This document shows, piece by piece, positions 2,346 to 45,880 of a DNA stretch of 64,000 nucleotides (positions are counted from its first letter, which is position 1; every line of letters begins with the position of its first letter). A model generated the notes under the pieces. It was not told where the DNA came from and did no database searches. It saw nothing but the letters and a program-made list of their open reading frames with translations. Source of the stretch: Candidatus Nanoarchaeia archaeon (GTDB lineage Archaea; Nanobdellota; Nanobdellia; SCGC-AAA011-G17; GW2011-AR18); the NCBI GenBank assembly GCA_035289605.1, contig DATDWR010000014.1, positions 13,798-77,797 on the forward strand, in the 5' to 3' direction. The translations under genes and the position numbers were made by a program.

Positions 2346-3957
2346 GAAGGATCTGAAGCTTTTTAAGCGTGATACAAGAACCCTAATTCTTACTATAGTT
2401 GCGCCTATAATTATTTTGTTTATATTGGGGAATGTTTTCGGCCAGTCTTCTACAGAAAATTCAGTTAGTGGTATAAGCTTGGGTGTTTGTGATCTTGATA
2501 ATAACAGTTTTGAGTTTAATATTTCATTGTTTAATATTATTAAGTTGGATGGTGACTGTGCTCTTCCAGCTAAAAACTTGGTTTCAGAAGGTAAGCTAAG
2601 AGCTTCTGTTATTATTTCTGAAGGATTTTCTTCTGATATTAAGGAAGGCAAAGGTGCAGAGATAATTTTCTTCGTTGATAATTCTAAGACACAAACTGCC
2701 ATTGTTTCTTCTGACGCTATAAAGGCTTTTGTCCAAGACCTTAATGAGAAAATTGGCACAGAGTTTATTGATGAAGCATGGATAAGATTAAGCAATTTAA
2801 ACAATAATTTAAAGCTTGTTCTTCCGCAGCTTGAATTAGCAAGAAAATCAGCTGTTGAAACTCAGAAAGATCTGGCAGATATTAACAAACAGCTAAATAA
2901 GATAAACGAAAGTAGGTTAGACAGAATATTAAACGAGATTAATAATACTTCGCCTTATTTAAAGCAGAATTTGTCTAGTGAATTAGATGATATTGTATTA
3001 TCATTAAATAATATTACATCTTCTAGTTGTTTGGCAAACTCTAGCTTTTGTCCTTTGCTTGCTAATATTACTTCCAGCCTTGCTTCTTCAGCTTTTAGAA
3101 TTAAGCAAAAAGAAGAGAGTGTTAATAGTCTTGATATTGATATTCTCGCAAGCCAGATTGCAGTTATAAAGTACTTTAAAGCCAATATTACGCTGCAGGT
3201 GAAAGAAATTAACAAGACAGCTTTTGATTTTACTAATGATATTATATCTGTAGAAAAAGAGTTAAGGGAAACTTCTCAGGCATTGGATGTTTATACTTCT
3301 AGGGATCCTAAAACAATTATTAGGGCTGTTAGTCTTAATGAAAATCCTGTTTTTGGAGACAGGACTTATTTTGAGTTTTTGTCTTTGGGCTTGATACTTA
3401 TTCTTTTGTTGTTTACTGTTATGCTTTCAGTTTCTTCAAATATTGTTTCAGAGAGGAATACTGGAACTTTAGCTAGGACACTGCTTAGTCCTACATCAGT
3501 TCCTTTGTTTTTAGTTTCAAAGATTATATTCTTTGTAATTGTAAGTTTTATAGAATTGTTTGTGATGCTGATTGTTTCTTACTTTTTTGGTGCTCCAATG
3601 TATATATCGCTGATAGTTTTATTGATTATGCTTTTTGCTTCAGTTAATTTTATACTTATTGGCATGTTTGTAGGATCGATTTCAAGAACTGAGAATACAG
3701 CACTGTTGACTTCTCTTGTTATAGGGCTTCCTATGTTTTTCCTTAGCGGTTTGTTCTTCCCTTTTGAGATTATGCCTAAATTCATGAGATTTGTAGGCGC
3801 AAATTCACCTCTTACATTGGCTCATGATAGCCTGGAAAAAATAGTCCTTTATGGCACTAAGTTTGAATATATTTCTTTTGTCAAGCTTGTTGTATTTTCT
3901 TTAATTCTGTTTCTTGTAGTATACTTTATAATTAAGAAGAAACCAACAGCAGGCTGA
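2323..3957 (+). CDS. ABC-2 type transporter permease with large extracytoplasmic coiled-coil domain (YhgE/Pip-like architecture)
   Basis: Has an N-terminal TM, a ~330-aa Asn/Ser-rich loop and a C-terminal multi-TM ABC-2 block. I prefer the ATG at 2323 (MKLVKLVKKDLKLF...) over the track start at 2284. It is coupled to the upstream ATPase. Confidence 0.75.
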   Translation: MKLVKLVKKDLKLFKRDTRTLILTIVAPIIILFILGNVFGQSSTENSVSGISLGVCDLDNNSFEFNISLFNIIKLDGDCALPAKNLVSEGKLRASVIISEGFSSDIKEGKGAEIIFFVDNSKTQTAIVSSDAIKAFVQDLNEKIGTEFIDEAWIRLSNLNNNLKLVLPQLELARKSAVETQKDLADINKQLNKINESRLDRILNEINNTSPYLKQNLSSELDDIVLSLNNITSSSCLANSSFCPLLANITSSLASSAFRIKQKEESVNSLDIDILASQIAVIKYFKANITLQVKEINKTAFDFTNDIISVEKELRETSQALDVYTSRDPKTIIRAVSLNENPVFGDRTYFEFLSLGLILILLLFTVMLSVSSNIVSERNTGTLARTLLSPTSVPLFLVSKIIFFVIVSFIELFVMLIVSYFFGAPMYISLIVLLIMLFASVNFILIGMFVGSISRTENTALLTSLVIGLPMFFLSGLFFPFEIMPKFMRFVGANSPLTLAHDSLEKIVLYGTKFEYISFVKLVVFSLILFLVVYFIIKKKPTAG

Positions 3958-19900: not shown

Positions 19901-20619
19901 TGTTCTGCCCCGATTTTAACTTCAGGCTTGTCTTTGCCTACTGGAAAAGCATAGTCCATTAATGTTATGTATTCTTTTCCTTCAGTTTGGATTACAACTT
20001 TTGCTTTTTCCAGGTTCTTTGCTTTGATTATCTGCTTTATTGTGCCTAGCTTGCCTACGTGTTTCCCGCCGCTTAGGAAGACTAGTGAATTTTCTTCAAG
20101 AGGCATGTTTTTTATTATTTCTTTTTTATCAAGGTCAAAGATTACTCCGTCTCCAACGTTTAGTTTCATTTCTTTTTCTTTTGCTGTTACATTTCTTCCG
20201 TCGTGAAATGTTATTTGCTGCGCTCCTTTCTTCAGTATAGTTTTCCTTACTATTTTGAGTGGTTTCAGTTTTGTTTCCTTTGCAGGTATTTCAAACAATG
20301 ATAATGTCCCGTCTTTTTTGTACAGCACTCTGAAATGCTTGCCTAAAGGTATTACTTCCAAGATGTCCATTAATCCTATTCCGAATTTGTAGTCTTTTCT
20401 TATTTTTTTGTCAACTTGCACATTTCCTTCATTTAGTATTTTGTTGACTTCTTTTGATGTCTTTGCATAGTTAAGAAGATTTTTTATAACAAAGCTTAGT
20501 GGCATGCTGGCTTGTAAAGGATGTGATCCAGGCATTGGTCTTGTTACCCATTTTTGTTCTTTTCTTTCTATTTTCCAGCTCTTTGGTGCTGCTATTTGTG
20601 ATAGGTGATTTTGTCCCAT
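19897..20619 (-). CDS. rps4e: 30S ribosomal protein S4e
   Basis: GQNHLSQIAAPKSWKIERKEQKWVTRPMPGSH start. Confidence 0.95.
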   Translation of the reverse strand: MGQNHLSQIAAPKSWKIERKEQKWVTRPMPGSHPLQASMPLSFVIKNLLNYAKTSKEVNKILNEGNVQVDKKIRKDYKFGIGLMDILEVIPLGKHFRVLYKKDGTLSLFEIPAKETKLKPLKIVRKTILKKGAQQITFHDGRNVTAKEKEMKLNVGDGVIFDLDKKEIIKNMPLEENSLVFLSGGKHVGKLGTIKQIIKAKNLEKAKVVIQTEGKEYITLMDYAFPVGKDKPEVKIGAEQ

Positions 20620-20621
20620 TT

Positions 20622-21002
20622 TTACTTTCTCTCAAGTGCTTTTTTTCTTGCCTTGTCCTCCATATTTAATTCTGTTATCATCAAGTTTGAGGGATGTATG
20701 CCGTAAGGAATTCTCGTGCCGTCTCTTTTTATTTGGTGTATTCCTTCAACGTACACTTTCCTGTGTTTTGTATCTACTTGTGTTACAATTCCTGTTTTGC
20801 TTTTGAACTGTCCTGTTGTAATCTTTACTTTGTCGTTTTTTCTGACTGGAATGTTTCTTTTCTTGTGTTTTGACCTTAGTTCTTTTGACAGTATTACTGA
20901 CATAAGTTTTCTGGCTATATGCAGCGGAGCATTGAATAAATATTTTCTCTGCTTTCTAGGCTGCTTGCTCGCTTTCCATGACTTGCTCCATTTTGTTTTC
21001 AT
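20622..21002 (-). CDS. rpl24: 50S ribosomal protein L24 (uL24)
   Basis: KOW motif VRKNDKVKITTGQFKSKTGIVTQV. Confidence 0.95.
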   Translation of the reverse strand: MKTKWSKSWKASKQPRKQRKYLFNAPLHIARKLMSVILSKELRSKHKKRNIPVRKNDKVKITTGQFKSKTGIVTQVDTKHRKVYVEGIHQIKRDGTRIPYGIHPSNLMITELNMEDKARKKALERK

Positions 21003-21400
21003 AGTATGCTCTTTGCTATTTTAGCTACTGCAGGCCATCTGGCTGCAACTTCCTTTGCTATTGGTCCTTTCACAAGTGTTCCTTTTGGGTTTCCTTTGTC
21101 ATCTTTTAATACTACTGCTGCATTGTCTTCGAATTTCACTCTTGTTCCGTCGCTTCTTCTGTATTCCTTTGTTTGTCTTACAATTATTGCATTGACTACT
21201 TTTTTTCTCATATCTGGAGAACCGCTCTTGACTGACGCAGTTACATAATCCCCAACTCCGCCGTATGGTTTTCTTCCCTTTACTGTTTTTTCTCCCTTGA
21301 AAGAGATTAGCCAGAGTATTTTTGCTCCTGAATTGTCGCATGCTGCTAGGAAGCTTCCTTTTTGCAGTCCCTTTGTTATTCTTGCCTTCACTGCTTTCAT
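20999..21400 (-). CDS. rpl14: 50S ribosomal protein L14 (uL14)
   Basis: LAACDNSGAKILWLISF... I prefer the start at 21400 (MKAVKARITKG), immediately after the S17 stop. Confidence 0.95.
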   Translation of the reverse strand: MKAVKARITKGLQKGSFLAACDNSGAKILWLISFKGEKTVKGRKPYGGVGDYVTASVKSGSPDMRKKVVNAIIVRQTKEYRRSDGTRVKFEDNAAVVLKDDKGNPKGTLVKGPIAKEVAARWPAVAKIAKSIL

Positions 21401-21729
21401 TGTAATTTCTCCACGACTACAAAATTCTTCGTTTTGCTTATTGGTCTGCACTCAACAATTCTTACTGCATCTCCAGTTTTTATTTCCATGCAGGCAGGGC
21501 TGTGCACGTGCAGTTTGCTTTTTCTTTTTTCATACCTTTGATATTTAGGAAGATAAAATAGTCTCGACCATTCAACTACTGCTGTTCTCTGGAGGTTTAT
21601 TTTGGTGACCTTTCCAAGGAAAGTCCTTCCTCTAACAGATAGTGAACCATGAAAAGCGCAGTTTTTGTCGTCGCACTCCTTGAAAGGCGCTTTTATTCCA
21701 AGCCCGATGTCTCTTGCTTTGCTGTTCAT
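21397..21729 (-). CDS. rps17: 30S ribosomal protein S17 (uS17)
   Basis: SVRGRTFLGKVTK...HSPACMEIKTGDAVRIVECRPISKTK. Confidence 0.95.
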   Translation of the reverse strand: MNSKARDIGLGIKAPFKECDDKNCAFHGSLSVRGRTFLGKVTKINLQRTAVVEWSRLFYLPKYQRYEKRKSKLHVHSPACMEIKTGDAVRIVECRPISKTKNFVVVEKLQ

Positions 21730-22061
21730 TTATCCTCCTTGATGACTATTGATTCTGGTTTGAATCCCAATTTTATCATTTCACCCTTTACTTTGTCTAC
21801 ATGATTTCCCTGCAGTTCTATTATGCCGTTTTTCATTGTTCCGCCGCACGCTAGTTTTGATTTTAGTTTTTTTGTTAGGTCTTTCAGGTTTATGGTTTTC
21901 TCGTCAAGCCCTTGTATTGTTGTAGCCAGCTTTCCAAATCTTCTCTTTCCAACAGTTATTGTTATTTTCTGTTCTTCTCTCGCTAGTGTTTCGCAGACGC
22001 ACAAGTCTTTTGGTAGTCCGCATACGTTGCATATTTCCATAATGCTATTAAGCACCTCCAA
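21726..22061 (-). CDS. sui1: translation initiation factor aSUI1 (eIF1 family)
   Basis: ITITVGKRRFGKLATTIQGLD...LKSKLACGGTMKNGIIELQGNH. Confidence 0.9.
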   Translation of the reverse strand: MEVLNSIMEICNVCGLPKDLCVCETLAREEQKITITVGKRRFGKLATTIQGLDEKTINLKDLTKKLKSKLACGGTMKNGIIELQGNHVDKVKGEMIKLGFKPESIVIKEDK

Positions 22062-22257
22062 CTTTTTTTTGGTTTTGCACTGTAAGTATTCTTGCTATGG
22101 CCCTTCTTAGTGCCCTTATTTTTCCAGGATTTTCTGGCTGCGTTCCTCTGCTTGCTTGAGCCCTTAATTTCATTAGTTCTTTTTTTATTTCTAGCATTCT
22201 CTTATTCATTTCTTCTGTGCTCATTTTTTTTAGTTCACTTTTTTTCAGTACTGCCAT
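22048..22257 (-). CDS. rpl29: 50S ribosomal protein L29 (uL29)
   Basis: ELKKMSTEEMNKRMLEIKKELMKLRAQ. Confidence 0.9.
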   Translation of the reverse strand: MAVLKKSELKKMSTEEMNKRMLEIKKELMKLRAQASRGTQPENPGKIRALRRAIARILTVQNQKKVGGA

Positions 22258-22897
22258 CTTCTTTCTTTTCCTCGCTTGCTTGAACTTCCTGTTTTTTTTC
22301 TTGCCTTAGTGTTATAGAGTCTGGAAGCATAACATCAGGATGTAGTATGCTTACTTTTATTCCTACAGTTCCCGATCTTAGGTTGCATGCTTCATTAGCT
22401 CTGTCCATAAAGCTTTCTGAGATATCTCCTGATTTTTTTAAATACCCTGATAAGAATCTCCAGCTTTTTGCTCTTTCGCCAGGCACTCCTCTTCCAGATA
22501 TGACTATTTCTATTCCTTTGGCTCCTGCTCTAATGCTGTCTTCTAGTGCTTTGTATGCCATTGCTTTGAATCTTTTTGGTCCGAACCTTTCAAAGCCGTT
22601 TATTAAGTTTCTGGCAACTGAAGCAGCATCTAGGTATGGGTTTTCTATTTCAACAACTTCAAGTTCAGGGTTTTCCATTTTGAATTTTGTTTTGAGCATG
22701 TCTGTTACTTTTTTTATGTTCGTTCCTCTTTTGCCGACGATTAGTCCGGGTTTTGAGGTGTATACGCTGATCTTTTCTCCTAATGGGGTTCTCTGCATTT
22801 TCACATGGCTGCAGTTCTGCCTGCCAAATATGGAAAATATGTATTCCTCTATTTGTTTTTCCCTAACCTTTTGTGCCACTATCTGTCTTTCTATCAT
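22235..22897 (-). CDS. rps3: 30S ribosomal protein S3 (uS3)
   Basis: KH domain LIVGKRGTNIKKV, and operon order. Confidence 0.95.
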   Translation of the reverse strand: MIERQIVAQKVREKQIEEYIFSIFGRQNCSHVKMQRTPLGEKISVYTSKPGLIVGKRGTNIKKVTDMLKTKFKMENPELEVVEIENPYLDAASVARNLINGFERFGPKRFKAMAYKALEDSIRAGAKGIEIVISGRGVPGERAKSWRFLSGYLKKSGDISESFMDRANEACNLRSGTVGIKVSILHPDVMLPDSITLRQEKKQEVQASEEKKEDGSTEKK

Positions 22898-23312
22898 TTG
22901 CTATCTCCTGTGCTCTTATTTCTACATGAGTGTTTTTCATTTTCATTCTTCCCTTTCTTCCATATCTTAGTCTTCTGTCTGCTCTGTCTGCTTTCGCAAA
23001 TGTGATTATTAAATTTGTGTTCATGCCTTTGTTTCCTGCATTAGCTTCCAGAGTGTTCAGCAGTTTAAGGAAAGTCCTGCTAGCATTTGCTGGATACCTT
23101 CCAGGTCCTGTTCTTCCCTTTTTGTGTCCTAAGTCAAAGTTGAATCTTCTCACTTTTAATGCTCTTTTTTGGTTTGAGATGTCTTCTAGAAGTCTTTTAG
23201 CAGACTCTAGTTTCATTCCTCTTATGTTGGAGCATATTTCTATTGACATCTTGGTTGATATCCCAAGACCCCTCCCGACAACTGTGGCATAGCTTTTATT
23301 TTCCATTTTCAT
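22863..23312 (-). CDS. rpl22: 50S ribosomal protein L22 (uL22)
   Basis: GLGISTKMSIEICSNIRGMKLESAKRLLEDI... Confidence 0.95.
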   Translation of the reverse strand: MKMENKSYATVVGRGLGISTKMSIEICSNIRGMKLESAKRLLEDISNQKRALKVRRFNFDLGHKKGRTGPGRYPANASRTFLKLLNTLEANAGNKGMNTNLIITFAKADRADRRLRYGRKGRMKMKNTHVEIRAQEIANDRKTDSGTKG

Positions 23313-23704
23313 TTGACTGACATTGCTGCGCTTGATTTTGTTGCTCCTATTCCTGGTGCCGAGTGTTGTACTTTTTTCCTTGTCATTGCGAACTCTCCAA
23401 GATAATGTCCTATCATGTCTTCCTCTATTGTTACAGGAACAAATTCCCTTCCAGCATGAATATGTATCGTTAGACCAACCATATTGGGCATGATTATCAT
23501 GTCTCTGCAGTGAGTCTTTATAAGTTTTGAAAATTTTCCGTCTTTTGCTTTTTTTATTTTCATTAGTAATTTTTTCTGCTGTTCTGTAAATCCTCTCTTT
23601 AATACCCTCTTCTCTCTGGAGTTCATGTAAGCTAGAAGTTCTTTTTGTTCAAGTTTTGCTAATTCTGTAATATTTTTTCCTCTGTAGGTTTGTTCTTTTT
23701 TCAT
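23309..23704 (-). CDS. rps19: 30S ribosomal protein S19 (uS19)
   Basis: MVGLTIHIHAGREFVPVTIEEDMIGHYLGEFAMTRK. Confidence 0.95.
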   Translation of the reverse strand: MKKEQTYRGKNITELAKLEQKELLAYMNSREKRVLKRGFTEQQKKLLMKIKKAKDGKFSKLIKTHCRDMIIMPNMVGLTIHIHAGREFVPVTIEEDMIGHYLGEFAMTRKKVQHSAPGIGATKSSAAMSVK

Positions 23705-24420
23705 CTTATCCTTCCTGTTCTTCTTGCTCTTACTTGTCCGACTTTTCTTCCTGGTGGCGCATGTCTCGGAGCTACCGAAGGTTTTCCCATGTGCCTTCCT
23801 CTTCCGCTTCCGAAAGGATGTTCAACTGCATTCATCGCGACAGCAGATGTGATTGGGTAAAGTTTGCCTTTCGCCCTCATGGCATGCCATCTTTTTCCTG
23901 CCTTGACAAATGGTTTTTCAGGCCTTCCTCCGCCAGCTACTGTTCCTATTGAAGCCATGCAGTTTCCGTCGAAAGCTTTTTCCTTCTTTGAAGGCATTAG
24001 TAATATGACACTTTCTTTTGTCCTTGATAATATTTTAGCAAATGTTCCTGAGGCTCTGACAAATTTTCCGCCATCTCCTTTTGTTTTTTCTACGTTATAT
24101 ACATCTGTTCCTATTGGTATTTCTGATAATAACATTGTGTTTCCTTTCTTGATTTCTGTCTTGTTTCCTATTGAAATGTTGTCCCCTACAGCTATGCCTT
24201 CAGGCGCGATTATATACCCTTCATCTCCATCATCATATCTTATCAATGCCAAAGGTGCGCTGTGTGCCGGGCTGTGTTCTAGTTTGGTTACTGTCCCGAA
24301 TGCTGCTTCTATTTTTGGAATGTTAATTTTGTGTCTTGCTTCTCCCTTGTATCTGTGTTTAAGGCTGACATACCTTCTTGTTCCCCTTCCTCTCTTCTGG
24401 CTTGTTATTCTTTTTCCCAT
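23701..24420 (-). CDS. rpl2: 50S ribosomal protein L2 (uL2)
   Basis: AMNAVEHPFGSGRGRHMGKPSVAPRHAPPGRKVG. Confidence 0.95.
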   Translation of the reverse strand: MGKRITSQKRGRGTRRYVSLKHRYKGEARHKINIPKIEAAFGTVTKLEHSPAHSAPLALIRYDDGDEGYIIAPEGIAVGDNISIGNKTEIKKGNTMLLSEIPIGTDVYNVEKTKGDGGKFVRASGTFAKILSRTKESVILLMPSKKEKAFDGNCMASIGTVAGGGRPEKPFVKAGKRWHAMRAKGKLYPITSAVAMNAVEHPFGSGRGRHMGKPSVAPRHAPPGRKVGQVRARRTGRIR

Positions 24421-24421
24421 T

Positions 24422-24685
24422 TTACATTAGCCCCAACCTTGTCATTATATTTATTGCAGGGTTTTGCTTGCTTAGTTTTACATATGCTCTCTTTTGTCCC
24501 TTATTAGATAAATATGTATTTACTGAATCAACTTTTACTTCAAAGGCCTGTTCAACTGCCTTTTTTATGTCTTCTTTTTTTGCCTTCATGTCCACCACAA
24601 ATAATAATTTGTTTTCTCTTTCCATCAGTCTTACTATTTTCTCTGTGCTTAATGGATACTTTAGTATTGTATATGGATCTTTCAT
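24422..24685 (-). CDS. rpl23: 50S ribosomal protein L23 (uL23)
   Basis: MKDPYTILKYPLSTEK start at 24685, directly after the L4 stop. The track's extension to 24751 overlaps L4. Confidence 0.9.
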   Translation of the reverse strand: MKDPYTILKYPLSTEKIVRLMERENKLLFVVDMKAKKEDIKKAVEQAFEVKVDSVNTYLSNKGQKRAYVKLSKQNPAINIMTRLGLM

Positions 24686-25452
24686 TTCTTGTCTCCTAAA
24701 AATAATTTTTCTTTGGATAATATCTCCATTGCTTCTTTTGTCCACAGGCATTCTCGTGGTAATTCATGTCCAAGGGTTAATATTGCTGCATTTAGCTTAT
24801 TGACTTCTATAATATCAAATCCTGGAATTGAATTTGCAGATTTCATCAGGTTGCATTTTTTGCTTACTACTATTAGCGCATTTTTCTTGTATCTTTTTTC
24901 TCTTCCTCTTGTTTTTCCTTTTCCAGGTCTTCTCCTTTCAACTTTCGCTGCATTTATCCCTATTTTTTCAAATACTTTTTTGAGTTCTTTTGTTTTTGAT
25001 ATTTCTTCAATTTTATTTTCCACAATTTTAAGCTTATTTTGTAAAGCAATTCCTGATAGTGCGCTTCTTATTGCTTTTCTTCTCTCTTTTTTGTTTATTT
25101 TTTGTGTCCATATCTTTTCTGCTTTTGGAGGGTGCGCTCTTCTTCCGCCTTTTGTTCCTGGCGCTAGCGCTCCTTCCCACCCAAACTGCATTCCTCTTTT
25201 CCACATCGTTTTTCTTGGTACTCTTGATATTCCTTTTCCGTATGATCCTTTGTAGTTTCTTCTCCTTCTGGAAAGTTTTGCGCTTACTCCTTGTCCTGCT
25301 TTTGGCATTGCACCGTATGGCTGTCTGTTGTTGTTTTCTATTACAAGTATTGCTCTTCTTACCAAGTTAGGTTCGTATTCCTCATTGAATTGTTCTGGCA
25401 GTTCTAAGCTTCCTATTTTATTTCCTTCTAAGCTAAAAATATCTACTTTCAT
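24682..25452 (-). CDS. rpl4: 50S ribosomal protein L4 (uL4)
   Basis: uL4 sequence, located between L3 and L23. Confidence 0.95.
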   Translation of the reverse strand: MKVDIFSLEGNKIGSLELPEQFNEEYEPNLVRRAILVIENNNRQPYGAMPKAGQGVSAKLSRRRRNYKGSYGKGISRVPRKTMWKRGMQFGWEGALAPGTKGGRRAHPPKAEKIWTQKINKKERRKAIRSALSGIALQNKLKIVENKIEEISKTKELKKVFEKIGINAAKVERRRPGKGKTRGREKRYKKNALIVVSKKCNLMKSANSIPGFDIIEVNKLNAAILTLGHELPRECLWTKEAMEILSKEKLFLGDKK

Positions 25453-26432
25453 TGTTTGCTCTCCGTGCTTACGTAAGTTAGTTCAACTTGGTTTCCTAGT
25501 GGCTTTGAATTTCTTATAGAATTTGTAAAAGTGATTAGTCTTTTTGCAGGTCCGGGCACTGATCCTTTTATTATTACATAGTCTCCTTTTACTAGTCCGT
25601 AATGAAGGAATCCTCCTTTAGGGTTGACTTTTTCTGAATTGCTGTCTATTAATATTAGGTCTTTGCTGTACTCAGTTCTTAGGTTGTATCCCATTCTTCC
25701 TGATGCCGGAACCCCCCATAATATTTTTCTTGGCCTTAACGGTCCGTAAACTACTCCCCTTCTTTTCTTTTCAGCCTTGTGCGCTTTCAATTGTGCTCCA
25801 TGTCTTTTTACTACACCCTGAAATCCTTTTCCTTTTGTTACAGAGTGGACATCTACTTTTATTCCCTGCTTCATTACTTCATTTATTTTTATTTCTTTGT
25901 CTAGAAGTTTTTTTGCATATTCTAATTTTGATTTTATATCATTGCCGCCAATTCCCATCTCAAATAATTCCGGAGTTTTTTTTCCTAATCCTGATTTTTT
26001 TGGTTGTGTGTAAACATTTACTCTAACATCTGTGTATTCTTCAATTTTGCTTTCTATTTCACTCAAGCTTGCTTTCTGTTTTTTTGGCATGCTTAATTTT
26101 CTTTCCAGCTCTTTGTCTAGTTTAGGGTTTAATACTTCTTTTGCAAGTTTTAACCCGTAAGTGTCTCTTTTGTATAATCTTATTGAGTATAATTTTAGTG
26201 CTGGGCATTCTATTACAGTTACAGGCCAGACAATTTCTTCTCCTTTTGTGTGTGACCATGGCCTGCTGTCTTTTAAGGCTATATGTGTCATTCCTGCCTT
26301 GTATCCTGCAAATCCTAGTAGTGTTGTATTCTTTTCATTCGCCCATGCTTTTATTTGTGCATATGGTCTTTGAGACTTCTTTCTAGGCCAGAACTGTAGG
26401 CTGCTGTGTCTTGGTCTTCTTACATTTGCCAT
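25449..26432 (-). CDS. rpl3: 50S ribosomal protein L3 (uL3)
   Basis: RRPRHSSLQFWPRKK start and FQGVVKRHG. This is the first gene of the operon. Confidence 0.95.
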   Translation of the reverse strand: MANVRRPRHSSLQFWPRKKSQRPYAQIKAWANEKNTTLLGFAGYKAGMTHIALKDSRPWSHTKGEEIVWPVTVIECPALKLYSIRLYKRDTYGLKLAKEVLNPKLDKELERKLSMPKKQKASLSEIESKIEEYTDVRVNVYTQPKKSGLGKKTPELFEMGIGGNDIKSKLEYAKKLLDKEIKINEVMKQGIKVDVHSVTKGKGFQGVVKRHGAQLKAHKAEKKRRGVVYGPLRPRKILWGVPASGRMGYNLRTEYSKDLILIDSNSEKVNPKGGFLHYGLVKGDYVIIKGSVPGPAKRLITFTNSIRNSKPLGNQVELTYVSTESKQ

Positions 26433-28231: not shown

Positions 28232-28393
28232 TTAAGACAAAAATTTTACTCTTTTTACTAATGAATTACTTATCTTGTGCTTTGTTATAAATTCTTTCCA
28301 TGAGACATATTTTAGTTTTTCTTGTTCCGGAAGTACGCAGATGTTTAAGTGGTTATTGAATAGTTGTAGGAATTCTTTTCTGTTTATTTTCAT
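28232..28393 (-). CDS. 53-aa ORF within repeat copy B (transposase C-terminus-like; may be non-functional)
   Basis: MKINRKEFLQLFNNHLNICVLPEQEKLKYVSWKEFITKHKISNSLVKRVKFLS. It is homologous to the out-of-frame tail of the 9.7-10.0 kb transposase remnant. Confidence 0.3.
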   Translation of the reverse strand: MKINRKEFLQLFNNHLNICVLPEQEKLKYVSWKEFITKHKISNSLVKRVKFLS

Positions 28394-28409
28394 GTTTGGA
28401 TTTTTTTCA
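28276..28409 (-). repeat. copy B of the ~133-nt dispersed repeat
   Basis: Roughly 80 percent identical to 9721-9853 by hand alignment. It lies 10 nt downstream of the RT stop. Confidence 0.75.
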
Positions 28410-28418
28410 ACAAATATA

Positions 28419-29929
28419 TTAAATTTTTTTAGAGCATTGTTCTCTCTGTTTTGTATTAAGAAAACATTTTCTGAAGCAGTATTCTTTTTTGTACCATTTA
28501 ACTACTGTTGAAATACTCTTCTTTTTGTTTTCATATTTTACGCTTGCTAATACGCAGTTTATTTCATTGTAAGTTATAGATTCATCTTTTATTCTTTCTT
28601 TTATATCTTTCAACTTTTCATTTTCATCTTTGATATTATTTAGAATTGTTATTATTTTATTTTTAGGGATTATTCTCCATATGCTTATCTGATTGTATTC
28701 TATTAAATTAGCAAGATGACTCCATACTGTTGATTCTTTAATGCCTCTTTGTTGCGCTATCTGTTTTATGCTTAATCCCTTCTTTAGCATTTGTAGTGTT
28801 TTTTGTGTTGTAAACTTGTAGTCTGCTGCTTCTATTTTCTTTAGGAAATTGTCATGTTTTTTAGGGTTTTTTATTTCAGTATTTGGTTCTACTGGGAAGT
28901 CTTTATTGAATTTCCTTGTTATTTGCCTTCTATATTTGTATGTGTCTGCATTAGAAACATATGCAGTCCATCCTTCAAATATTTCTATGACTTTTTCTCT
29001 TTCAACTGCGCCTTTTTCATATAATCCTTTTAACATTAAAAAATTTCTTTCAAACTTTTGCAGATTCTTTTTTCTTATTAGCTTGAATTCTGGAAATATT
29101 CTAAATCCTAAGAAATTTGTCCCGTTGCTTGACTGTATTATTTTAGATTTGTCTGGGTGTAATTCTAAGGCTAATTTTGTTTTTAAGAATTCGTCTATTT
29201 TATTTTTGTAATAATCTAACAATGTTTTATGCTTATGTAAGATTACGAAGTCATCCACATATCTTACGTAGTATTTTACTTTTAATTGCTCTTTTACATA
29301 GTGATCAAGTTCGTTAAGGTAGACATTTGCAAAGAATTGTGAAGTTAAGTTCCCTAAAGGCATCCCAATTTTTGCCGTCGCCCCCCCCCGCTGTGGTTTG
29401 CCAAGATTGTTTTTATTAACCAGATTAATCTTGAGTCATTTACTTTTTTCTTAATTAACGTGATTAATATTTCATGATTAACTGTTTCGAAATAGTGTTT
29501 AATATCTGCTTTCAAGACATAACAGTCTCTTGTGTAATTTTTTGAAACTTTTCTTTTGAAAAAGTCAAATCTCTGAACTGCTTTAAATGCTCCTTTTCTT
29601 GCTCTGTTAGCATAATTATCAAAAATGAAACTATTGTCAAAAATAGGTTCTATTATATTACATATCGCATGATGTATTACTCTATCTCTGAAGTCTGACT
29701 TGCTTATCTTTCTTGTTTTTGGATCTCTAAGGATGAAAGTTTGTAAGGGTCTTGGCTTGTAAGTGTGAAATATTATTTCAGATTGCAAATCTAAAAGATT
29801 TTGTTTTAAATCTTTTTCAAAGTCTATAACATATTGCTTCAATGTTTTTCTTTTTCTTGCTTTTTCATAAGCTAAGTAAAGATTATCGTAAGAAATAATT
29901 TGACTAAAAATATCAATTTCGTTATCCAT
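28419..29929 (-). CDS. DGR-type reverse transcriptase with C-terminal HTH extension, interrupted by a frameshift in a G9 tract
   Basis: Track ORFs 29354..29929 and 28419..29363 are the two halves. Motifs present: FRDRVIHHAI, ADIKHYFETVNH, LGNLTSQFFANVYLNELDHYV ([I/L]GxxxSQ, the DGR hallmark), YVRYVDDFVIL, LHPDKSKI and NFLGFRI. Adding one G at 29381-29389 gives ...HSGGGATAKIGMPLGNLTSQ... Confidence 0.85.
29381..29389 (-). other. G9 (plus strand C9) homopolymer at the RT frameshift site
   Basis: cgCCCCCCCCCgc in a strongly AT-rich genome. The frames of the two RT halves differ by +1 exactly here. Confidence 0.9.
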
Positions 29930-29949
29930 TTTATAATCAAGGTTATTTT

Positions 29950-30230
29950 AGTCCCAGCTTTTGTTGTCTTTGCTATTCCAACCACACGGCCGTAGAAGTT
30001 GTCTAGATTGTAGTTGCCATTCAAACCGTTGTTGTAGTAGCCAACAAACAGCACACGGCCAGCAGAGTAGCCCTTTCACTTTTTACTATTCACTGCCGCT
30101 TCACCATTTTTGGCGTTGCGACTGTATTTTATAGCAATAATATTGCCTTAGTGAAAAGGCGTGTAGCCCAAGCCACTCCAAAATTTAACTTACTACACCG
30201 ACGCATAGTAAATTAATAAGTGCTGGGACT
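29950..30230 (-). ncRNA. putative TR-containing DGR RNA bounded by a perfect 9-bp inverted repeat
   Basis: agtcccagc (29950-29958) and gctgggact (30222-30230) are exact reverse complements bracketing the TR plus spacer. Internal hairpins lie at 30190-30211 and 30134-30146, and 30070-30079 pairs with 30151-30160 (9 of 10). A TATA-like ttttatac element lies ~26 nt upstream. Confidence 0.45.
29971..30060 (-). repeat. DGR template repeat (TR)
   Basis: Non-coding copy of the VR. On the minus strand it reads ggccgtgtgctgtttgttggctactacaacaacggtttgaatggcaactacaatctagacaacttctacggccgtgtggttggaatagca, rich in AAY and TAC codons. Confidence 0.85.
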
Positions 30231-30262
30231 GAAAATTCTAAAAAATAAGAAGTATAAAAGGT

Positions 30263-31084
30263 TTATTCAACTACTTTTACTCTGGAATCTCTAACAGGAA
30301 CATATAAAGTTCCATTATGTTCAAATGCTCTTTTCTCACTTAAAGCACCAGCTACTCTTGCTTCTAATTTAGGATCCAAATTTTTTGCGACACTATGCGC
30401 CTCTGGCGCAACCCCAACCACACGGCCGCAGAAGAAGTCTAGATAGAAGCCAATCAAACCGTCTTTGCAGCAGCCAACAAACAGCACACGGCCTCTGGCT
30501 TCGTCACCTAAATCATCTCTATGCCATACGCCGATTCTGTTGCCGTAAGCTTTCTTGTGAGCTGCTAGATATCTTTCTGCGTTTTCTTGTCCGCCTAAAA
30601 ATGGGACAGTTTGAGGATGTGCTAAAGCTTCGTCAACTTTTATAACACCGCTAGTTGATTTTCTTAAAGTGTCATGATCAACAACGAAAACTCTTCCGTT
30701 GCCTTCTTGGTCTAGTAAACTATAAAATTCATCTTGAGGCATTATTCCAGCACCATTAACTAATTTACCATCATCTATAGCTTTTGCTACATTTGCTGGA
30801 TTGCTGAAGTAATTGGGAACGTGACCATAAACAACTACTGGTTTTCCGTGTCTTGTCTTTCCTGTTGCTCTAATGCTTGGAGTTCCAAACCATACTTCCC
30901 ATAATCTGGATTCTTTATCAGCGTCTGTTCTTGCTTGTGCTAGTTCTGGCATGAATAAAGGATTGTAACCTGCATCTGCACAATCTTTAAAGGATCTGTC
31001 AACACTGTGGCTTCCTTCTGCATAAAATTCTCTAGCTTGAGAAACAACTTTTCTTACAATATCGATCACATTATTATATGCCAT
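30263..31084 (-). CDS. DGR variable (target) protein, cytoplasmic, unknown N-terminal domain
   Basis: 273 aa with no signal peptide or TM. The VR encodes GRVLFVGCCKDGLIGFYLDFFCGRVVGVA about 45 aa from the C-terminus. It is visibly more GC-rich than its surroundings. Confidence 0.85.
   Translation of the reverse strand: MAYNNVIDIVRKVVSQAREFYAEGSHSVDRSFKDCADAGYNPLFMPELAQARTDADKESRLWEVWFGTPSIRATGKTRHGKPVVVYGHVPNYFSNPANVAKAIDDGKLVNGAGIMPQDEFYSLLDQEGNGRVFVVDHDTLRKSTSGVIKVDEALAHPQTVPFLGGQENAERYLAAHKKAYGNRIGVWHRDDLGDEARGRVLFVGCCKDGLIGFYLDFFCGRVVGVAPEAHSVAKNLDPKLEARVAGALSEKRAFEHNGTLYVPVRDSRVKVVE
30397..30409 (-). other. GC hairpin at the 3' edge of VR1 (gcgcc-aga-ggcgc on the coding strand)
   Basis: 5-bp GC stem with a 3-nt loop. 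It is absent at the equivalent TR position. This is analogous to the target-recognition hairpins described downstream of VRs in other DGRs. Confidence 0.55.
30407..30493 (-). repeat. DGR variable repeat (VR1)
   Basis: An 87-nt match to the TR. Differences: 13 substitutions at TR adenines, 1 at a TR cytosine, and one 3-nt gap (hand alignment). Confidence 0.85.
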
Positions 31085-42119: not shown

Positions 42120-42926
42120 TTATGCTGTTTTGCCTTGAAGTAAATCTTCTAAACTGACTCCAATTTTTTTCGCGACTGACTGTGGCCCTGCCACTTCCCC
42201 GACAAAACGACCGAAGTTGTCAAGATCGATGTAGCCGTCCAAACCGTAGCCGTAGCCGCTGCTAACGGACACCAAACTGCCTCTATCAGCTTGACCTTCT
42301 TGAACACTTAAACTAATGTAAGGTTTCTCTACTCCTTTCTTGATTAACATTTCAGCATAAGCTTCTGCTCTTCTTTTTCCGCCTGAAAGCATTATTGCTC
42401 TCGGATCTTTAACCCATTTAGCTAATTTCATGTAATCATTAGGTAAACTTTTGAATAAACTAACATCTGCTACTACTCCGAATTGTTCTTCTAAGTCTTG
42501 GTCTTGGGTTTCTCTTAAGAAAGTTTTATAATCTCTTAATCCTTCTACTTTTCTTTTTTTGAAAGCTTGAACTTCTTGTTCTGTTAGTTTTGCTCCATAG
42601 TTTACAAGTCCTTTTTCAATAGCGCTTTTTAATCTTTGATGATCTGGTAAAGGGTGATTTAAACCGTGAACTACAATAACTTTATTTCCGACATTGTAAA
42701 CTCCTGAAGCTGTAGTGTACCAGTCAGTCCAGATATAATCATTAAAATCTGGACAGTCATTTCTTAAATCCAAAACTCTGGGAGAAGTTACTGGCTTCAA
42801 ACCTCTAGCTACAGTATCTCTTAAAGCATTAGCAACACCGTACTTGCTGTCTTTTAAGTCTTCAACAATTTCTCCAAAAGGTACTGGAGATGTTCTGTTT
42901 ATTTTACCATCAATTGTGATTATCAT
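42120..42926 (-). CDS. paralog of the DGR target protein (VR-like C-terminal segment)
   Basis: 268 aa. It is collinear with 30263..31084: VVVYGH/VIVVHG, KAIDDGKLVNGAG/SAIEKGLVNYGAK, FLGGQENAERYL/MLSGGKRRAEAY, and RGRVLFVG...GRVVGVAPEAHSVAKN versus RGSLVSVS...GRFVGEVAGPQSVAKK. Confidence 0.75.
   Translation of the reverse strand: MIITIDGKINRTSPVPFGEIVEDLKDSKYGVANALRDTVARGLKPVTSPRVLDLRNDCPDFNDYIWTDWYTTASGVYNVGNKVIVVHGLNHPLPDHQRLKSAIEKGLVNYGAKLTEQEVQAFKKRKVEGLRDYKTFLRETQDQDLEEQFGVVADVSLFKSLPNDYMKLAKWVKDPRAIMLSGGKRRAEAYAEMLIKKGVEKPYISLSVQEGQADRGSLVSVSSGYGYGLDGYIDLDNFGRFVGEVAGPQSVAKKIGVSLEDLLQGKTA
42182..42194 (-). other. GC hairpin after the VR-like segment (gtggc-agg-gccac on the coding strand)
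   Basis: 5-bp stem with a 3-nt loop, starting at the same codon offset after GRxVGx as the VR1 hairpin but with a different stem sequence. Confidence 0.5.
42197..42283 (-). repeat. VR-like segment of the paralog (diverged from the local TR)
   Basis: Encodes SLVSVSSGYGYGLDGYIDLDNFGRFVG. It aligns to the TR, but many differences are at non-adenine positions. Confidence 0.5.
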
Positions 42927-43722: not shown

Positions 43723-43959
43723 ATGTATATGGTAAAATTAATTAGTCTGTCAGAAGAGGCATATAAAGTGTTGAAGCAACTAAAAAAAGATAGCATGAGC
43801 TTTAGTGATACAATTTTAAAACATTTAAACCATGAAAGGAAAAATAAAACTGAAGACCTGGAAGGTTTGATAAAGTGGATTAAAAGTATAAAAAGTGTAA
43901 GTAAAAAAGAAAAGATATCAAAAAATGTTGACGAAATAGTGTATGGTATAAAAAGATGA
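43723..43959 (+). CDS. vapB: VapB-type antitoxin (archaeal DUF217-like)
   Basis: KLISLSEEAYKVLKQLKKDSMSFSDTILKHL. Overlaps the vapC start by 4 nt. The start may be at 43729. Confidence 0.65.
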   Translation: MYMVKLISLSEEAYKVLKQLKKDSMSFSDTILKHLNHERKNKTEDLEGLIKWIKSIKSVSKKEKISKNVDEIVYGIKR

Positions 43960-44348
43960 TAGCTGATACATCATTTCTTGTTGCATTGTTTATAGAAGAA
44001 GATGAGCTTCATGAGAAATCAATAAATGAACTAGAAAAGAATAAAAAAGAAATATTAATTACTGATAGAATTCTTGAAGAAACATTTACAGTTATTTGTT
44101 ATAAAAAAGGAGTAGATTATGCTTTAATGATTTTTGAGAAACTAAAAAATAATAAGGACATAATTTTTTATCAGTTAAGTGAAGAAGAAATTAAAAAAAT
44201 ATATGAAATAATAAAGAAATTCAGAAAAAAATTAAGTTTTGCAGACTACACTGTAATTTACTTGGCATTAAAGGACAATGAAAAAATACTATGCTTTGAT
44301 GAAGAACTAAATAAGACAATTAATTATAGAAGAAGAATACAAGATTAA
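43956..44348 (+). CDS. vapC: PIN-domain toxin VapC
   Basis: MIADTSFLVALF... with an acidic PIN residue pattern, coupled to the upstream antitoxin. Confidence 0.75.
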   Translation: MIADTSFLVALFIEEDELHEKSINELEKNKKEILITDRILEETFTVICYKKGVDYALMIFEKLKNNKDIIFYQLSEEEIKKIYEIIKKFRKKLSFADYTVIYLALKDNEKILCFDEELNKTINYRRRIQD

Positions 44349-44710: not shown

Positions 44711-45880
44711 ATGGCTAATATACTAAAGAATAGGCATAAATATTTTGTTTCAATAGAAGATTTGAATCCGTATAGATTTTTTATTAAATTGGATGATTCT
44801 TTTAATGAATTGATGTTTAGTAAATTAGTTTCCAAGTATCCATCAATGAAGGAAATTTCAAAACAGTTAGATGTTTCTTTGAGTTCTATTTATTCTTGGA
44901 AAAAATCAAGACAATATCCATTATACATAATTTTACATATTTTAAAGGAAACGAAAATAGAAATAAAAAAATTAGAACATACTATTATTAGTATAAAGTC
45001 TGGATTTAAAACTAAAAACGGCGGTGGGGGTGTTAGTCAGGCCATATTTCCGGTGTTTCCGATAAATTTTTCCAAAGAATTATTTAGAATAATCGCACAT
45101 ACTTTTGGTGACGGTTGTTTAAGTATAGCCCAAAATGGAAATATAACTCATGCATACTATAATCAAGAAAAATTGTTAAGAGATAACATTAAACAGGATA
45201 TAAGAGTTGTTTTTGGGAATATAAATCTTAATGAGGGTATAAATAAGACTACACCCTTCGTTAGTATACCTGTTCCTATTTCACTTATTTTATTATCAAA
45301 GATAAAAGTATTTAATGGTACTAGATGCATTATTCCTGACTTTATCTTAAACTCAAAAGATAATGCTTTTAAAATAGAATTTATTAAATCAATTTTTGAT
45401 GATGAAGCCCATGTAAGATACGATCCACCACACAGAAGAGTAGAACTTGCTTTATCTAATGAACTATTTTTAAAACAAATTAGAAATATCTTATTAGAAT
45501 TTAATATAGGAACTACTAATATCTATTATTATTTAAACCGTGATGGATATCATAAATATTATTTTTATATAAGAAATTTTCATAATATAAAATTATTTTA
45601 TGACAAAATTGGATTTAATCATCCTAAAAAGTTGAGAGACTTAAAAATGATAATTTCAAATCCCGGTAGAAAGCATTATGCCACTGGAGAAACTGAATCT
45701 TTAATAATCTCCAATTTGGCTAAAAAACCTGGCTTATCTAAGGATCTTTCCAGAATTTTATTTAGGAATAAATCAACAATTAATTATTGGTTATATAAAT
45801 TAGAAAATAAAGGAAAAGTTAAAAGAAATGGGTTTAGAAAGCTTAAAAAGCGTTCTGAAATTATCTGGGGTTTGAAATGA
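44711..45880 (+). CDS. free-standing double-motif LAGLIDADG-family protein flanked by HTH/wHTH domains
   Basis: Motifs IIAHTFGDGCL and FIKSIFDDEAHV. N-terminal HTH (MKEISKQLDVSLSSIYSWKK) and C-terminal wHTH (NKSTINYWLYKLENKGKV). Its stop overlaps the topA ATG (ATGA). Confidence 0.65.
   Translation: MANILKNRHKYFVSIEDLNPYRFFIKLDDSFNELMFSKLVSKYPSMKEISKQLDVSLSSIYSWKKSRQYPLYIILHILKETKIEIKKLEHTIISIKSGFKTKNGGGGVSQAIFPVFPINFSKELFRIIAHTFGDGCLSIAQNGNITHAYYNQEKLLRDNIKQDIRVVFGNINLNEGINKTTPFVSIPVPISLILLSKIKVFNGTRCIIPDFILNSKDNAFKIEFIKSIFDDEAHVRYDPPHRRVELALSNELFLKQIRNILLEFNIGTTNIYYYLNRDGYHKYYFYIRNFHNIKLFYDKIGFNHPKKLRDLKMIISNPGRKHYATGETESLIISNLAKKPGLSKDLSRILFRNKSTINYWLYKLENKGKVKRNGFRKLKKRSEIIWGLK

Follow-up and report, generated by a model that had tools for sequence, protein, structure and literature searches.

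An AvpA-class diversity-generating retroelement of a DPANN archaeon, probably switched off, with a twice-frameshifted reverse transcriptase and a structured RNA beside its template

We analyzed a diversity-generating retroelement (DGR) carried by a 64,000-nt stretch of DNA from a Candidatus Nanoarchaeia archaeon (contig DATDWR010000014.1), the whole of which is called here the window. On the minus strand, a target open reading frame (ORF) that runs from 31084 to 30263 and encodes 273 aa is followed by an intergenic stretch of 333 nt and then by the frame of a reverse transcriptase (RT) starting at 29929 (Table 1). The ORF map gives the same gene order as an earlier reading made from the sequence alone (the sequence-only reading). 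The 333 nt had been described there as a non-coding spacer; they hold indeed no credible ORF, but a structured RNA of the Rfam family RT-16 had been overlooked. The RT had been placed at 28419-29929, and its start at 29929 stands, but a conserved C-terminal remnant (28232-28393) lies outside these limits. The template repeat (TR) is situated in the intergenic stretch, 49 nt upstream of the RT start, and the variable repeat (VR) covers codons 198 to 224 of the 273 codons of the target gene. No accessory Avd (or HRDC) gene was found between target and RT, and a Pfam scan of the neighboring genes gave no Avd-like match. A 60-aa ORF started by GTG (29872-30054, minus strand) runs through the TR and is annotated as a gene in the public assemblies L004 and L006. 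Most likely this is no accessory gene but an artefact that the open frame of the TR produces.

The exact alignment of the intergenic copy (29971-30060, 90 nt including 22 A) with the gene copy (30407-30493, 87 nt) revealed 14 substitutions, of which 13 fall at an A of the intergenic copy and one is a C to A change (TR C30031, VR A30464). A single gap of 3 nt takes out two more A. The counts obtained earlier by hand (14 substitutions, 13 of the 22 A changed, one non-A change from C to A) were exactly reproduced. Over this alignment, which includes the elements for the initiation of mutagenic homing (IMH), the enrichment of mismatches at A corresponds to a Fisher exact p of 1e-9. The last 7 nt read AATAGCA in the TR and GGTTGCG in the VR. 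The VR copies of the related loci L009, L010 and L033 run on as ...GGTTGG followed by GGTTGCGCC(A/G)GAGGCGC, and their TR copies as ...GG followed by AATAG(C/A)C. Because TGGAAT and TGGGGT are fixed in these three loci, the last four "A mismatches" of the window represent a constant difference between two cis-elements; TGGGGT/TGGAAT is the IMH/IMH* pair of the nanoarchaeal (DUSEL4) DGRs (Paul et al. 2015, PMC4372165). The 13 adenine mismatches previously ascribed to mutagenesis are therefore reduced to nine, all in the repeat proper.

In the repeat proper (83 versus 80 nt), substitutions were found at 9 of the 16 aligned A and at 1 of the 64 other bases (Fisher p = 4.5e-7). A tabulation of the mismatches by TR base, the check that the sequence-only reading had proposed, thus yields a clear enrichment at the TR adenines. 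With nine of its ten substitutions at a TR adenine, the pair lies within the published bounds for a DGR, at least five A mismatches and at most one non-A mismatch (Handa et al. 2016, PMC5006420). TR and VR are identical over a block of 22 nt at their 5′ end. Read in frame, the TR proper gives GRVLFVGYYNNGLNGNYNLDNFYGRVVG, with six AAY, four TAC and one GAC codons, from which we calculated that ~1e10 protein variants and no stop codons can arise. The GC hairpin that follows the IMH has a 6-bp stem and a 3-nt loop (DNA fold of -6.9 kcal/mol) and is kept in L009, L010 (loop GGA) and L033; a GC hairpin with a trinucleotide loop within the target gene is a known feature of nanoarchaeal DGRs (PMC4372165; PMC5006420).

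Table 1. Features of the retroelement, in the order in which they are met on the minus strand (positions in the window; bRT, RT of the Bordetella phage DGR).
Feature	Position	Strand	Remarks
Target (variable-protein) gene	30263-31084	minus	273 aa; AvpA-like protein, predicted C-type-lectin fold
VR proper	30414-30493	minus	80 nt; encodes GRVLFVGCCKDGLIGFYLDFFCGRVVG, residues 198-224; defined by exact alignment to the TR
IMH, TGGGGT	30411-30416	minus	3′ end of the VR; same motif in L009, L010, L033
GC hairpin, TGCGCC-AGA-GGCGCA	30396-30410	minus	within the target ORF, directly 3′ of the IMH
Closing helix, 5′ strand, AGUCCCAGC	30222-30230	minus	pairs with 29950-29958; overlaps the start of the RT-16 match
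RT-16 RNA (Rfam RF03019)	30062-30227	minus	ends 1-2 nt before the TR
TR proper	29978-30060	minus	83 nt, 18 A; non-coding DNA between RT-16 and the RT start
IMH*, TGGAAT	29975-29980	minus	3′ end of the TR; GGAATAG nearly invariant in 14 related loci
Closing helix, 3′ strand, GCUGGGACU	29950-29958	minus	~20 nt 3′ of the TR; 21 nt upstream of the RT start codon
RT fragment 1	29354-29929	minus	191-aa ORF: N-terminal extension, fingers, motifs 1-3; aligns to bRT (8ub7) from residue 8 onward
Poly-G tract G9 (C9 on the plus strand)	29381-29389	minus	frameshift 1; fragment 1 is out of frame beyond the tract
RT fragment 2	28419-29363	minus	314-aa ORF: motifs 4-7, thumb, HTH_40, Cys-rich segment; starts at the conserved Met of GMPLGN
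A7 run in TCT-AAAAAAA-TTT	28424-28430	minus	frameshift 2; one base more than TCA-AAA-AAA-TTT of the relatives
RT fragment 3	28232-28393	minus	53-aa ORF MKINRKEFLQLFNNHLNICVLPEQEKLKYVSWKEF... (MKINRKEFLQLFNNHLNICVLP...); conserved C-terminal module severed by frameshift 2

Since nine of the differences between TR and VR are adenine-specific, mutagenic homing occurred at least once, and the VR records at least one such event. The single non-adenine mismatch suggests that some time has elapsed since the last homing. Among the related loci, ~55 of 82 carry a TR/VR pair with 8-20 A mismatches and 0-1 others. An ungapped scan at the non-A positions detected no further copy of the repeat in the 64 kb besides the VR and a weak signal at 42189-42281, a VR-like segment ~65% identical to the TR at the DNA level. 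It belongs to a second AvpA-like gene (42120-42926, minus strand, 268 aa), whose product shares 24% identity with the target (E 2e-8) and has AvpA as its top, though weak, match in the PDB (E 0.17). We rejected this segment as a second target of the retroelement: the distant AvpA-like paralogue in which it lies lacks both an IMH and a hairpin, and the window contains no TR that would belong to it. This gene is apparently either a paralogue that is not diversified or an ancient target that has decayed.

As judged from its sequence, the product of the target gene is an AvpA-type variable protein with a C-type-lectin fold, all the AvpA features tested being present. A phmmer search against the PDB matched its residues 15-230, VR included, to AvpA (5IOO, E 1.1e-62). 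The protein carries GKPVVVYGH, which fits the AvpA motif GxxVVVYxH, and a tail of 49 aa after the VR. It was assigned to no family in Pfam, NCBIfam or PADLOC. Its 99 homologues, where they carry a name, belong to Woesearchaeota, Nanoarchaeota or Pacearchaeota. When 86 homologues were aligned, the column entropy reached 2.7-3.3 bits at positions 205-208, 211, 213-215 and 217-219, and these columns coincide with the A-containing codons of the TR. Between the hypervariable columns stands a conserved scaffold made of G204, G209, L210, G212, G220, R221, G224 and V225.

The RNA encoded upstream of the TR was identified with cmscan, which aligned the window to the whole RT-16 model (positions 1-158 of 158) with 81.4 bits (gathering score 50, E 3.8e-11). 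This is the sole Rfam match in the 64-kb window, where the same scan gave neither a group II intron RNA nor a retron RNA family. RT-16 was recovered in 13 of the 15 related loci scanned, including that of the DUSEL4 nanoarchaeon AAA011-G17 (L087, 101 bits), and in the window, L009 and L010 the TR begins at the 3′ end of RT-16, so that the RNA is placed immediately 5′ of AvpA-class TRs. Furthermore, a 9-bp helix brackets RT-16 and the TR together and lies outside the Rfam model. Over 14 loci, 97.6% of the cells of this closing helix are paired, and compensatory changes occur in five of the nine pairs, for instance UCUUGGU/ACCAAGA in L087, GUCUC/GAGAC in L019 and AUCCC/GGGAU in L014. None of 500 shuffles reached the observed values, and sliding the partner strand lowered the pairing to 29-41%. 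Because the local helix P1 of Rfam and the long-range helix use the same 5′ strand, they are mutually exclusive; under a naive column mapping the local P1 pairing is imperfect in most loci. The competition between P1 and the closing helix may constitute a conformational switch. We also considered that IMH* (AUAGC) might form a priming duplex by pairing with the invariant GCUAUAAAAU of RT-16. This idea was dropped, the GC(U) being engaged in a locally covarying hairpin and the remaining pairs being invariant.

Several RNA motifs located near RT genes have been described by Weinberg et al. (2017, PMC5737381), who linked a single one of them, RT-10, to a DGR and for the remaining motifs put this forward as a speculation. 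The conservation and position described above allow the orphan RT-16 to be attributed to the DGR RNA of the AvpA class. The DGR of the Bordetella phage BPP-1 has its structured Sp RNA (Rfam RT-10) on the 3′ side of the TR, whereas here RT-16 (~165 nt) occupies the 5′ side. The closing helix has an analogue in the phage DGR RNA, the upstream:downstream 'cPRT Stop' duplex. Compared with the phage, the arrangement appears circularly permuted.

The two RT motifs cited by the sequence-only reading, LGNLTSQFFANVYL and YVRYVDDFVIL, are both present. Motif 4 is LGNLTSQ, which matches the [I/L/V]GxxxSQ of DGR RTs, and YVDD is present. For comparison only, the RT frame was repaired in silico. Among the proteins of the PDB, the best match of the repaired RT was the Bordetella phage DGR RT (8ub7, E 8.6e-44, 153 bits), with a group II intron RT at 1.5e-24 (about 90 bits) and retron-type RTs at 1e-23 (~87 bits); the margin of 60 bits over the group II intron RT argues for the DGR affinity that had been proposed from the motifs. 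The RT is 55% identical to that of the DGR of DUSEL4 AAA011-G17 (L087). Pfam recognizes RVT_1 followed by a C-terminal HTH_40 (E 2e-21). The family comprises more than 5,500 proteins at E ≤ 1e-30, almost all of them with RVT_1 and HTH_40 and 545-610 aa long, and species-representative genomes contribute at least 597 matches, almost exclusively from metagenome-assembled genomes (MAGs) of DPANN archaea. The C-terminal extension of the RT (window 28232-29363; residues ~340-565 of the repaired protein) is conserved, with HTH_40, the pattern W-Y-x4-C-x-R-K-C...Q-R-x2-C and the segment KEFLxLFNNHxxICVLP. Its four conserved Cys residues may form a metal site, and the extension might stand in for Avd in a locus that has no avd. 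For the C-terminal ~228 aa, only non-significant matches were obtained in the PDB (E ≥ 0.05, circovirus Rep).

If the locus were not a DGR, the two repeats would be an ordinary duplication or a gene-conversion tract, and the RT beside them would have no relation to them and stem from a group II intron, a retron or a defence system. The NCBIfam scores of the repaired RT, all below cut-off, are indeed highest for the group II RT/maturase model TIGR04416 (156 bits for a cut-off of 300), followed by Drt3a (78, cut-off 200), retron (56, cut-off 235) and AbiA (29, cut-off 250), and PADLOC returns many DRT models at lower scores. This reading is nevertheless effectively refuted: the adenine bias has p < 1e-6, bRT leads the solved matches by 60 bits, the RNA found by Rfam in the 64 kb is RT-16 and neither a group II intron nor a retron RNA, the target is an AvpA homologue equipped with IMH, IMH* and hairpin, and dozens of relatives share the architecture with A-only mismatches. 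That the locus is a DGR is in our view beyond reasonable doubt.

The RT gene of the window is interrupted twice, both frameshifts being defined by alignment with 12 intact homologues. The protein P0101 of locus L009 is the closest of the intact homologues (74% identity), and tblastn of P0101 on the window produced three high-scoring segment pairs in frames 2, 1 and 2. The first shift occurs at the G9 tract, the only G/C run of at least 7 nt in the 64-kb window. At this place L009 has G10 and reads HSEGGGATAKIGMPLGN / HSEGGGATAKIGMPLGNLTSQ; G10 in the window would restore ...NHSGGGATAKIGMPLGNLTSQ..., that is HSGGGATAKIGMPLGNLTSQ. At the second shift (28419-28433), the window has TCT-AAAAAAA-TTT-AA versus TCA-AAA-AAA-TTT-GA in the relatives, and the frame stops at 28419. 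Fragment 3, located beyond this stop, aligns to the C-terminus of the 12 full-length homologues (548-610 aa). The sequence-only reading had described the RT as frameshifted; the shift at the G tract is real, but the second one at 28424-28430 had escaped it. An intact, expressible RT is thus a DGR feature that the window lacks.

Both shifts fall in homopolymers (G9 and A7), errors are frequent in long runs of G, and assemblies are interrupted close to the tract, as would be the case if the RT were intact and the frameshifts were homopolymer miscalls. However, the region is identical at 99.95-100% over 2-20.8 kb in JGI 3300002105, in four ENA MEGAHIT assemblies and in Logan (L002-L008), and G9 stands in all those that extend to the tract (L002, L003, L004, L005 and L007). 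This recurrence of G9 and of the region across samples and pipelines makes a sequencing or assembly artefact unlikely. Moreover, A7 is well inside the reliable range of short reads, and two independent errors would be required in one gene with none elsewhere in 20 kb. Taken together, we consider such an artefact highly improbable. No full-length (G10) version of the window RT was found in 5.8 billion protein clusters, the top match after the protein itself being 74% identical. A search for G-tract length variants gave no match in the JGI metagenome contigs, a collection evidently devoid of this population. A programmed -1 frameshift stimulated by a downstream structure was rejected, because no unusual RNA structure was detected downstream of the tract (z +1.0).

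We then compared VR alleles and tract lengths in consensus assemblies of public data. The 90%-identity cluster of the target contains two alleles on 18 contigs, which differ only at A22V, outside the VR; likewise, L001 differs from the window only by the A22V base, a scaffold gap apart. The clusters of P0031 and P0057 display differences confined to the VR between near-identical alleles, and the cluster look-up is therefore able to reveal active diversification. The sequence-only reading had cautioned that the element may be off or decaying. This caveat is strengthened by the second frameshift, by G9 in all the assemblies that reach the tract and by the single VR allele. As a whole, the locus is likely to be an AvpA-class DPANN DGR that is switched off and whose VR is frozen.

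Several points weigh against this interpretation. Consensus assemblies conceal minority VR variants and minority tract lengths, and several other clusters of the family, taken irrespective of the state of their RT, are likewise without VR variation; for these reasons the invariance of the VR is weak evidence, which fits inactivity without proving it. The G9 tract is itself slippery and prone to transcriptional or ribosomal slippage and to slipped-strand reversion. Each of the two breaks is situated in a linker of variable sequence that shortly precedes a conserved Met, and the stop of ORF1 overlaps the start of ORF2, so that separately translated fragments might still assemble. In the absence of an Avd-like gene, the steps borrowed from the phage system may also differ. 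Finally, an intact RT located elsewhere in the genome, beyond the 64-kb window, could serve the TR in trans, and nanoarchaeal genomes with four or more DGRs have been published (Paul et al. 2015, PMC4372165).

The position of the breaks would suit a split but functional RT, whose three ORFs (fingers; palm, thumb and HTH_40; C-terminal module) are translated separately and assemble into an enzyme. ORF2 starts at the Met of the invariant GMPLGN and ORF3 at a Met aligned with the conserved ...LEMxxKEF..., the ORF1 stop (29354-29356) is found 5 nt downstream of the ORF2 ATG (29361-29363) in an overlap of the coupling type, the loss is limited to short, variable linker residues, and the loci L031 and L033 share the first break. 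Split genes are established in Nanoarchaeum equitans, but we know of no split DGR RT. In addition, the break parts the fingers from the palm inside one catalytic domain, at least 70 relatives encode a single polypeptide, and the breaks occur at homopolymer runs, as mutational accidents predict. A split enzyme is for these reasons improbable, and we retain the view of a DGR that is likely switched off.

G tracts are a recurrent property of the related RT genes. In 83 related loci (602 kb), we counted 22 G/C runs of at least 8 nt where about 3 are expected; 18 of the 22 are G on the RT sense strand and are positioned within the RT ORF or at most 10 nt from its start. Within the RT genes, the tracts are found near the N-terminus, at nt ~410, at ~540-600 (in the loop that precedes motif 4, where the window tract also lies) and at ~715-745, differing positions that suggest independent origins. 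Tracts of G8-G11 occur in L009, L010, L020, L021, L022, L025, L028, L031, L033, L050, L060, L061, L063, L064, L074, L086 and L090. CGA directly follows many of the RT G tracts. Elsewhere in these RT genes, GGG accounts for only ~10% of the Gly codons. In three loci, which stem from separate studies, the frame is lost precisely at the tract, each being one base off G10: the window (G9), L033 (G9) and L031 (G11). The cassettes of L031 and L033 are otherwise pristine, with 20 and 11 A-only mismatches, respectively, and no intact allele of either locus was present among the retrieved proteins. Public assemblies fail at or near the tract: the ENA scaffold L001 (~3757-3810) diverges by a mis-join ~45 nt upstream of it, and L028 (4540-4563) contains a gap of Ns right after G11. 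These breaks fit either a loss of coverage or heterogeneity of the tract length.

Campylobacter jejuni and other AT-rich bacteria possess poly-G/C contingency loci, in which tracts of G8-G11 within ORFs give ON and OFF alleles one base apart. There the tracts gate surface-structure genes, whereas the present case is archaeal, the candidate gated gene is the mutator RT itself and the switching is hypothetical. We tentatively propose, while thinking it rather doubtful, that the poly-G tracts in DPANN DGR RT genes are contingency switches for targeted hypermutation and that the window carries an OFF allele. This would explain the recurrent tracts at differing positions of the RT, the rarity of GGG elsewhere and the three loci that are off by one base. 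If true, a lineage that has acquired a useful variable-protein sequence could lock its VR by a one-base slip and unlock it later.

For the window itself, the corresponding possibility is a reversible OFF state, in which the tract acts as a hypermutable contingency tract or as a site of transcriptional or ribosomal slippage that gates the RT, and a minority of cells or transcripts make the full-length enzyme. The excess of sense-strand G runs in and at RT ORFs, their differing positions, the scarcity of GGG codons, the three one-base deviations (two of them in cassettes otherwise pristine) and the assembly breaks at L028 and L001 all speak for it. However, the window RT would need a second, independent correction at 28424-28430, a G10 allele of it has never been assembled, and no stimulatory structure lies downstream of the tract. 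L031 and L033 are, moreover, single low-redundancy MAG contigs in which homopolymer miscalls are possible. Our literature search found no link between DGR RTs and homopolymeric tracts, which leaves the idea without precedent. We therefore judge a reversible OFF state of the window RT to be unlikely and keep to a DGR whose RT is probably disabled by both frameshifts.

The VR is one codon shorter than the TR, which the sequence-only reading had counted among the possible signs of an element switched off or decaying. As a sign of decay it does not hold, since such differences in length are often met in relatives whose RT is uninterrupted and also separate near-identical alleles. Indels of 3 or 6 nt accompanied otherwise by A-only mismatches were seen in 10 of about 60 related TR/VR pairs (L019, L028, L032, L033, L047, L058, L062, L066, L073 and L076), most of them with uninterrupted RTs, and the deletion of L033 lies at the same spot as that of the window. 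Concomitantly, the near-identical alleles P0031/P0247 and P0057/P0249 have VR lengths that are 1-2 codons apart. These data indicate that codon indels are a normal by-product of diversification in this DGR family. The diversification process itself seems to alter the length of the VR, and the indels probably arise through slippage on the AAC repeats.

The closest counterparts of the element are the nanoarchaeal DUSEL4 DGRs (PMC4372165, PMC5006420). They have in common with it the AvpA target, the compact order target-TR-RT, the IMH/IMH* pair, a TR rich in AAY, a GC hairpin inside the ORF, a VR of ~27 codons and a C-terminal tail of ~50 aa, and in AAA011-G17, whose RT shares the 55% identity given above, RT-16 is again found upstream. 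They differ in the hairpin loop, published as GRA versus AGA in the window, and in that the window RT is frameshifted twice. The window element belongs to another DPANN lineage than DUSEL4, from groundwater, its nearest named relatives being Woesearchaeota and Nanoarchaeota MAGs. Nineteen AvpA-like DGRs from groundwater metagenomes have been listed (Handa et al. 2016, PMC5006420), and the window element may be one of them. More generally, the groundwater DGRs of the candidate phyla radiation (CPR) and DPANN (Paul et al. 2017, as cited in Wu et al. 2018, PMC5758913) probably share both environment and lineage with the window, to judge from the names of the JGI and ENA contigs, which resemble those of Rifle groundwater data. 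Compact cassettes devoid of Avd and RTs with C-terminal extensions are common to both. DGRs without Avd are documented, and ~20% of the DGR RTs carry C-terminal extensions, with no motif assigned to them.

The element also resembles the phage BPP-1 DGR (bRT-Avd, Mtd; Handa et al. 2018, PMC6182149; bioRxiv 10.1101/2023.10.23.563531; 8ub7). The RT fold and motifs are shared, motif 4 being IGSLTSQ in the phage and LGNLTSQ in the window, and so are the adenine-specific transfer from TR to VR, the IMH, a hairpin 3′ of the VR and a target with a C-type-lectin fold. The phage DGR has avd, which the window lacks, whereas the window RT has a C-terminal extension of ~220 aa (HTH_40, Cys-rich) that does not exist in bRT.

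The DGR lies ~2 kb from an archaeal-type ribosomal-protein operon (window 20263-26432, minus strand; 14653-20822 in L002) with genes for L3, L4, L23, L2, S19, L22, S3, L29, SUI1, S17, L14, L26 and S4e, and it is flanked by a gene for a TctA-family transporter and by a GSDH-like gene. Given these surroundings, the DGR is chromosomal and on no obvious mobile element. Further away on the plus strand, an overlapping pair (43723-44348) encodes a VapB-like antitoxin (PF02697, E 3e-10) and a PIN-domain toxin (PF01850, E 4e-11), and downstream of it a 389-aa ORF (44711-45880) contains a LAGLIDADG_3 domain (E 4e-6). In the relatives L014, L016, L018, L019 and L021, the unit formed by RT-16, TR and target is on the strand opposite to the RT, in divergent or convergent orientation, and the order of the cassette thus varies within the DGR family.

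By homology with the Bordetella phage and nanoarchaeal DGRs, we infer how such an element would work with an intact RT. An RNA spanning about 30230 to 29950 on the minus strand would be transcribed, containing the closing helix, the RT-16 domain, the TR and IMH*. The RT, with its RVT_1 domain, C-terminal HTH_40 and Cys-rich module, would copy the TR into cDNA and misincorporate nucleotides opposite the template adenines. The cDNA would then replace the VR, presumably steered on the 3′ side by the IMH (TGGGGT) together with the GC hairpin next to it, and on the 5′ side by the identical block of 22 nt. The predicted outcome is the recoding of 11 codons on the ligand-binding face of an AvpA-like protein with a C-type-lectin fold.

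As a DGR, the element is ordinary, for AvpA-class DGRs are abundant in DPANN archaea and have been described since 2015-2017. The locus provides a well-documented example of a DGR with an RT that is disabled and a VR that appears frozen. For the family, the one-codon differences in length between TR and VR can be regarded as a normal output of these DGRs, and the assignment of RT-16 places the structured RNA on the side of the template opposite to that of the phage paradigm. Should the poly-G tracts of the RT genes prove to be genuine switches, they would be relevant to an unsolved problem of DGR biology, namely how a beneficial variant escapes being overwritten.

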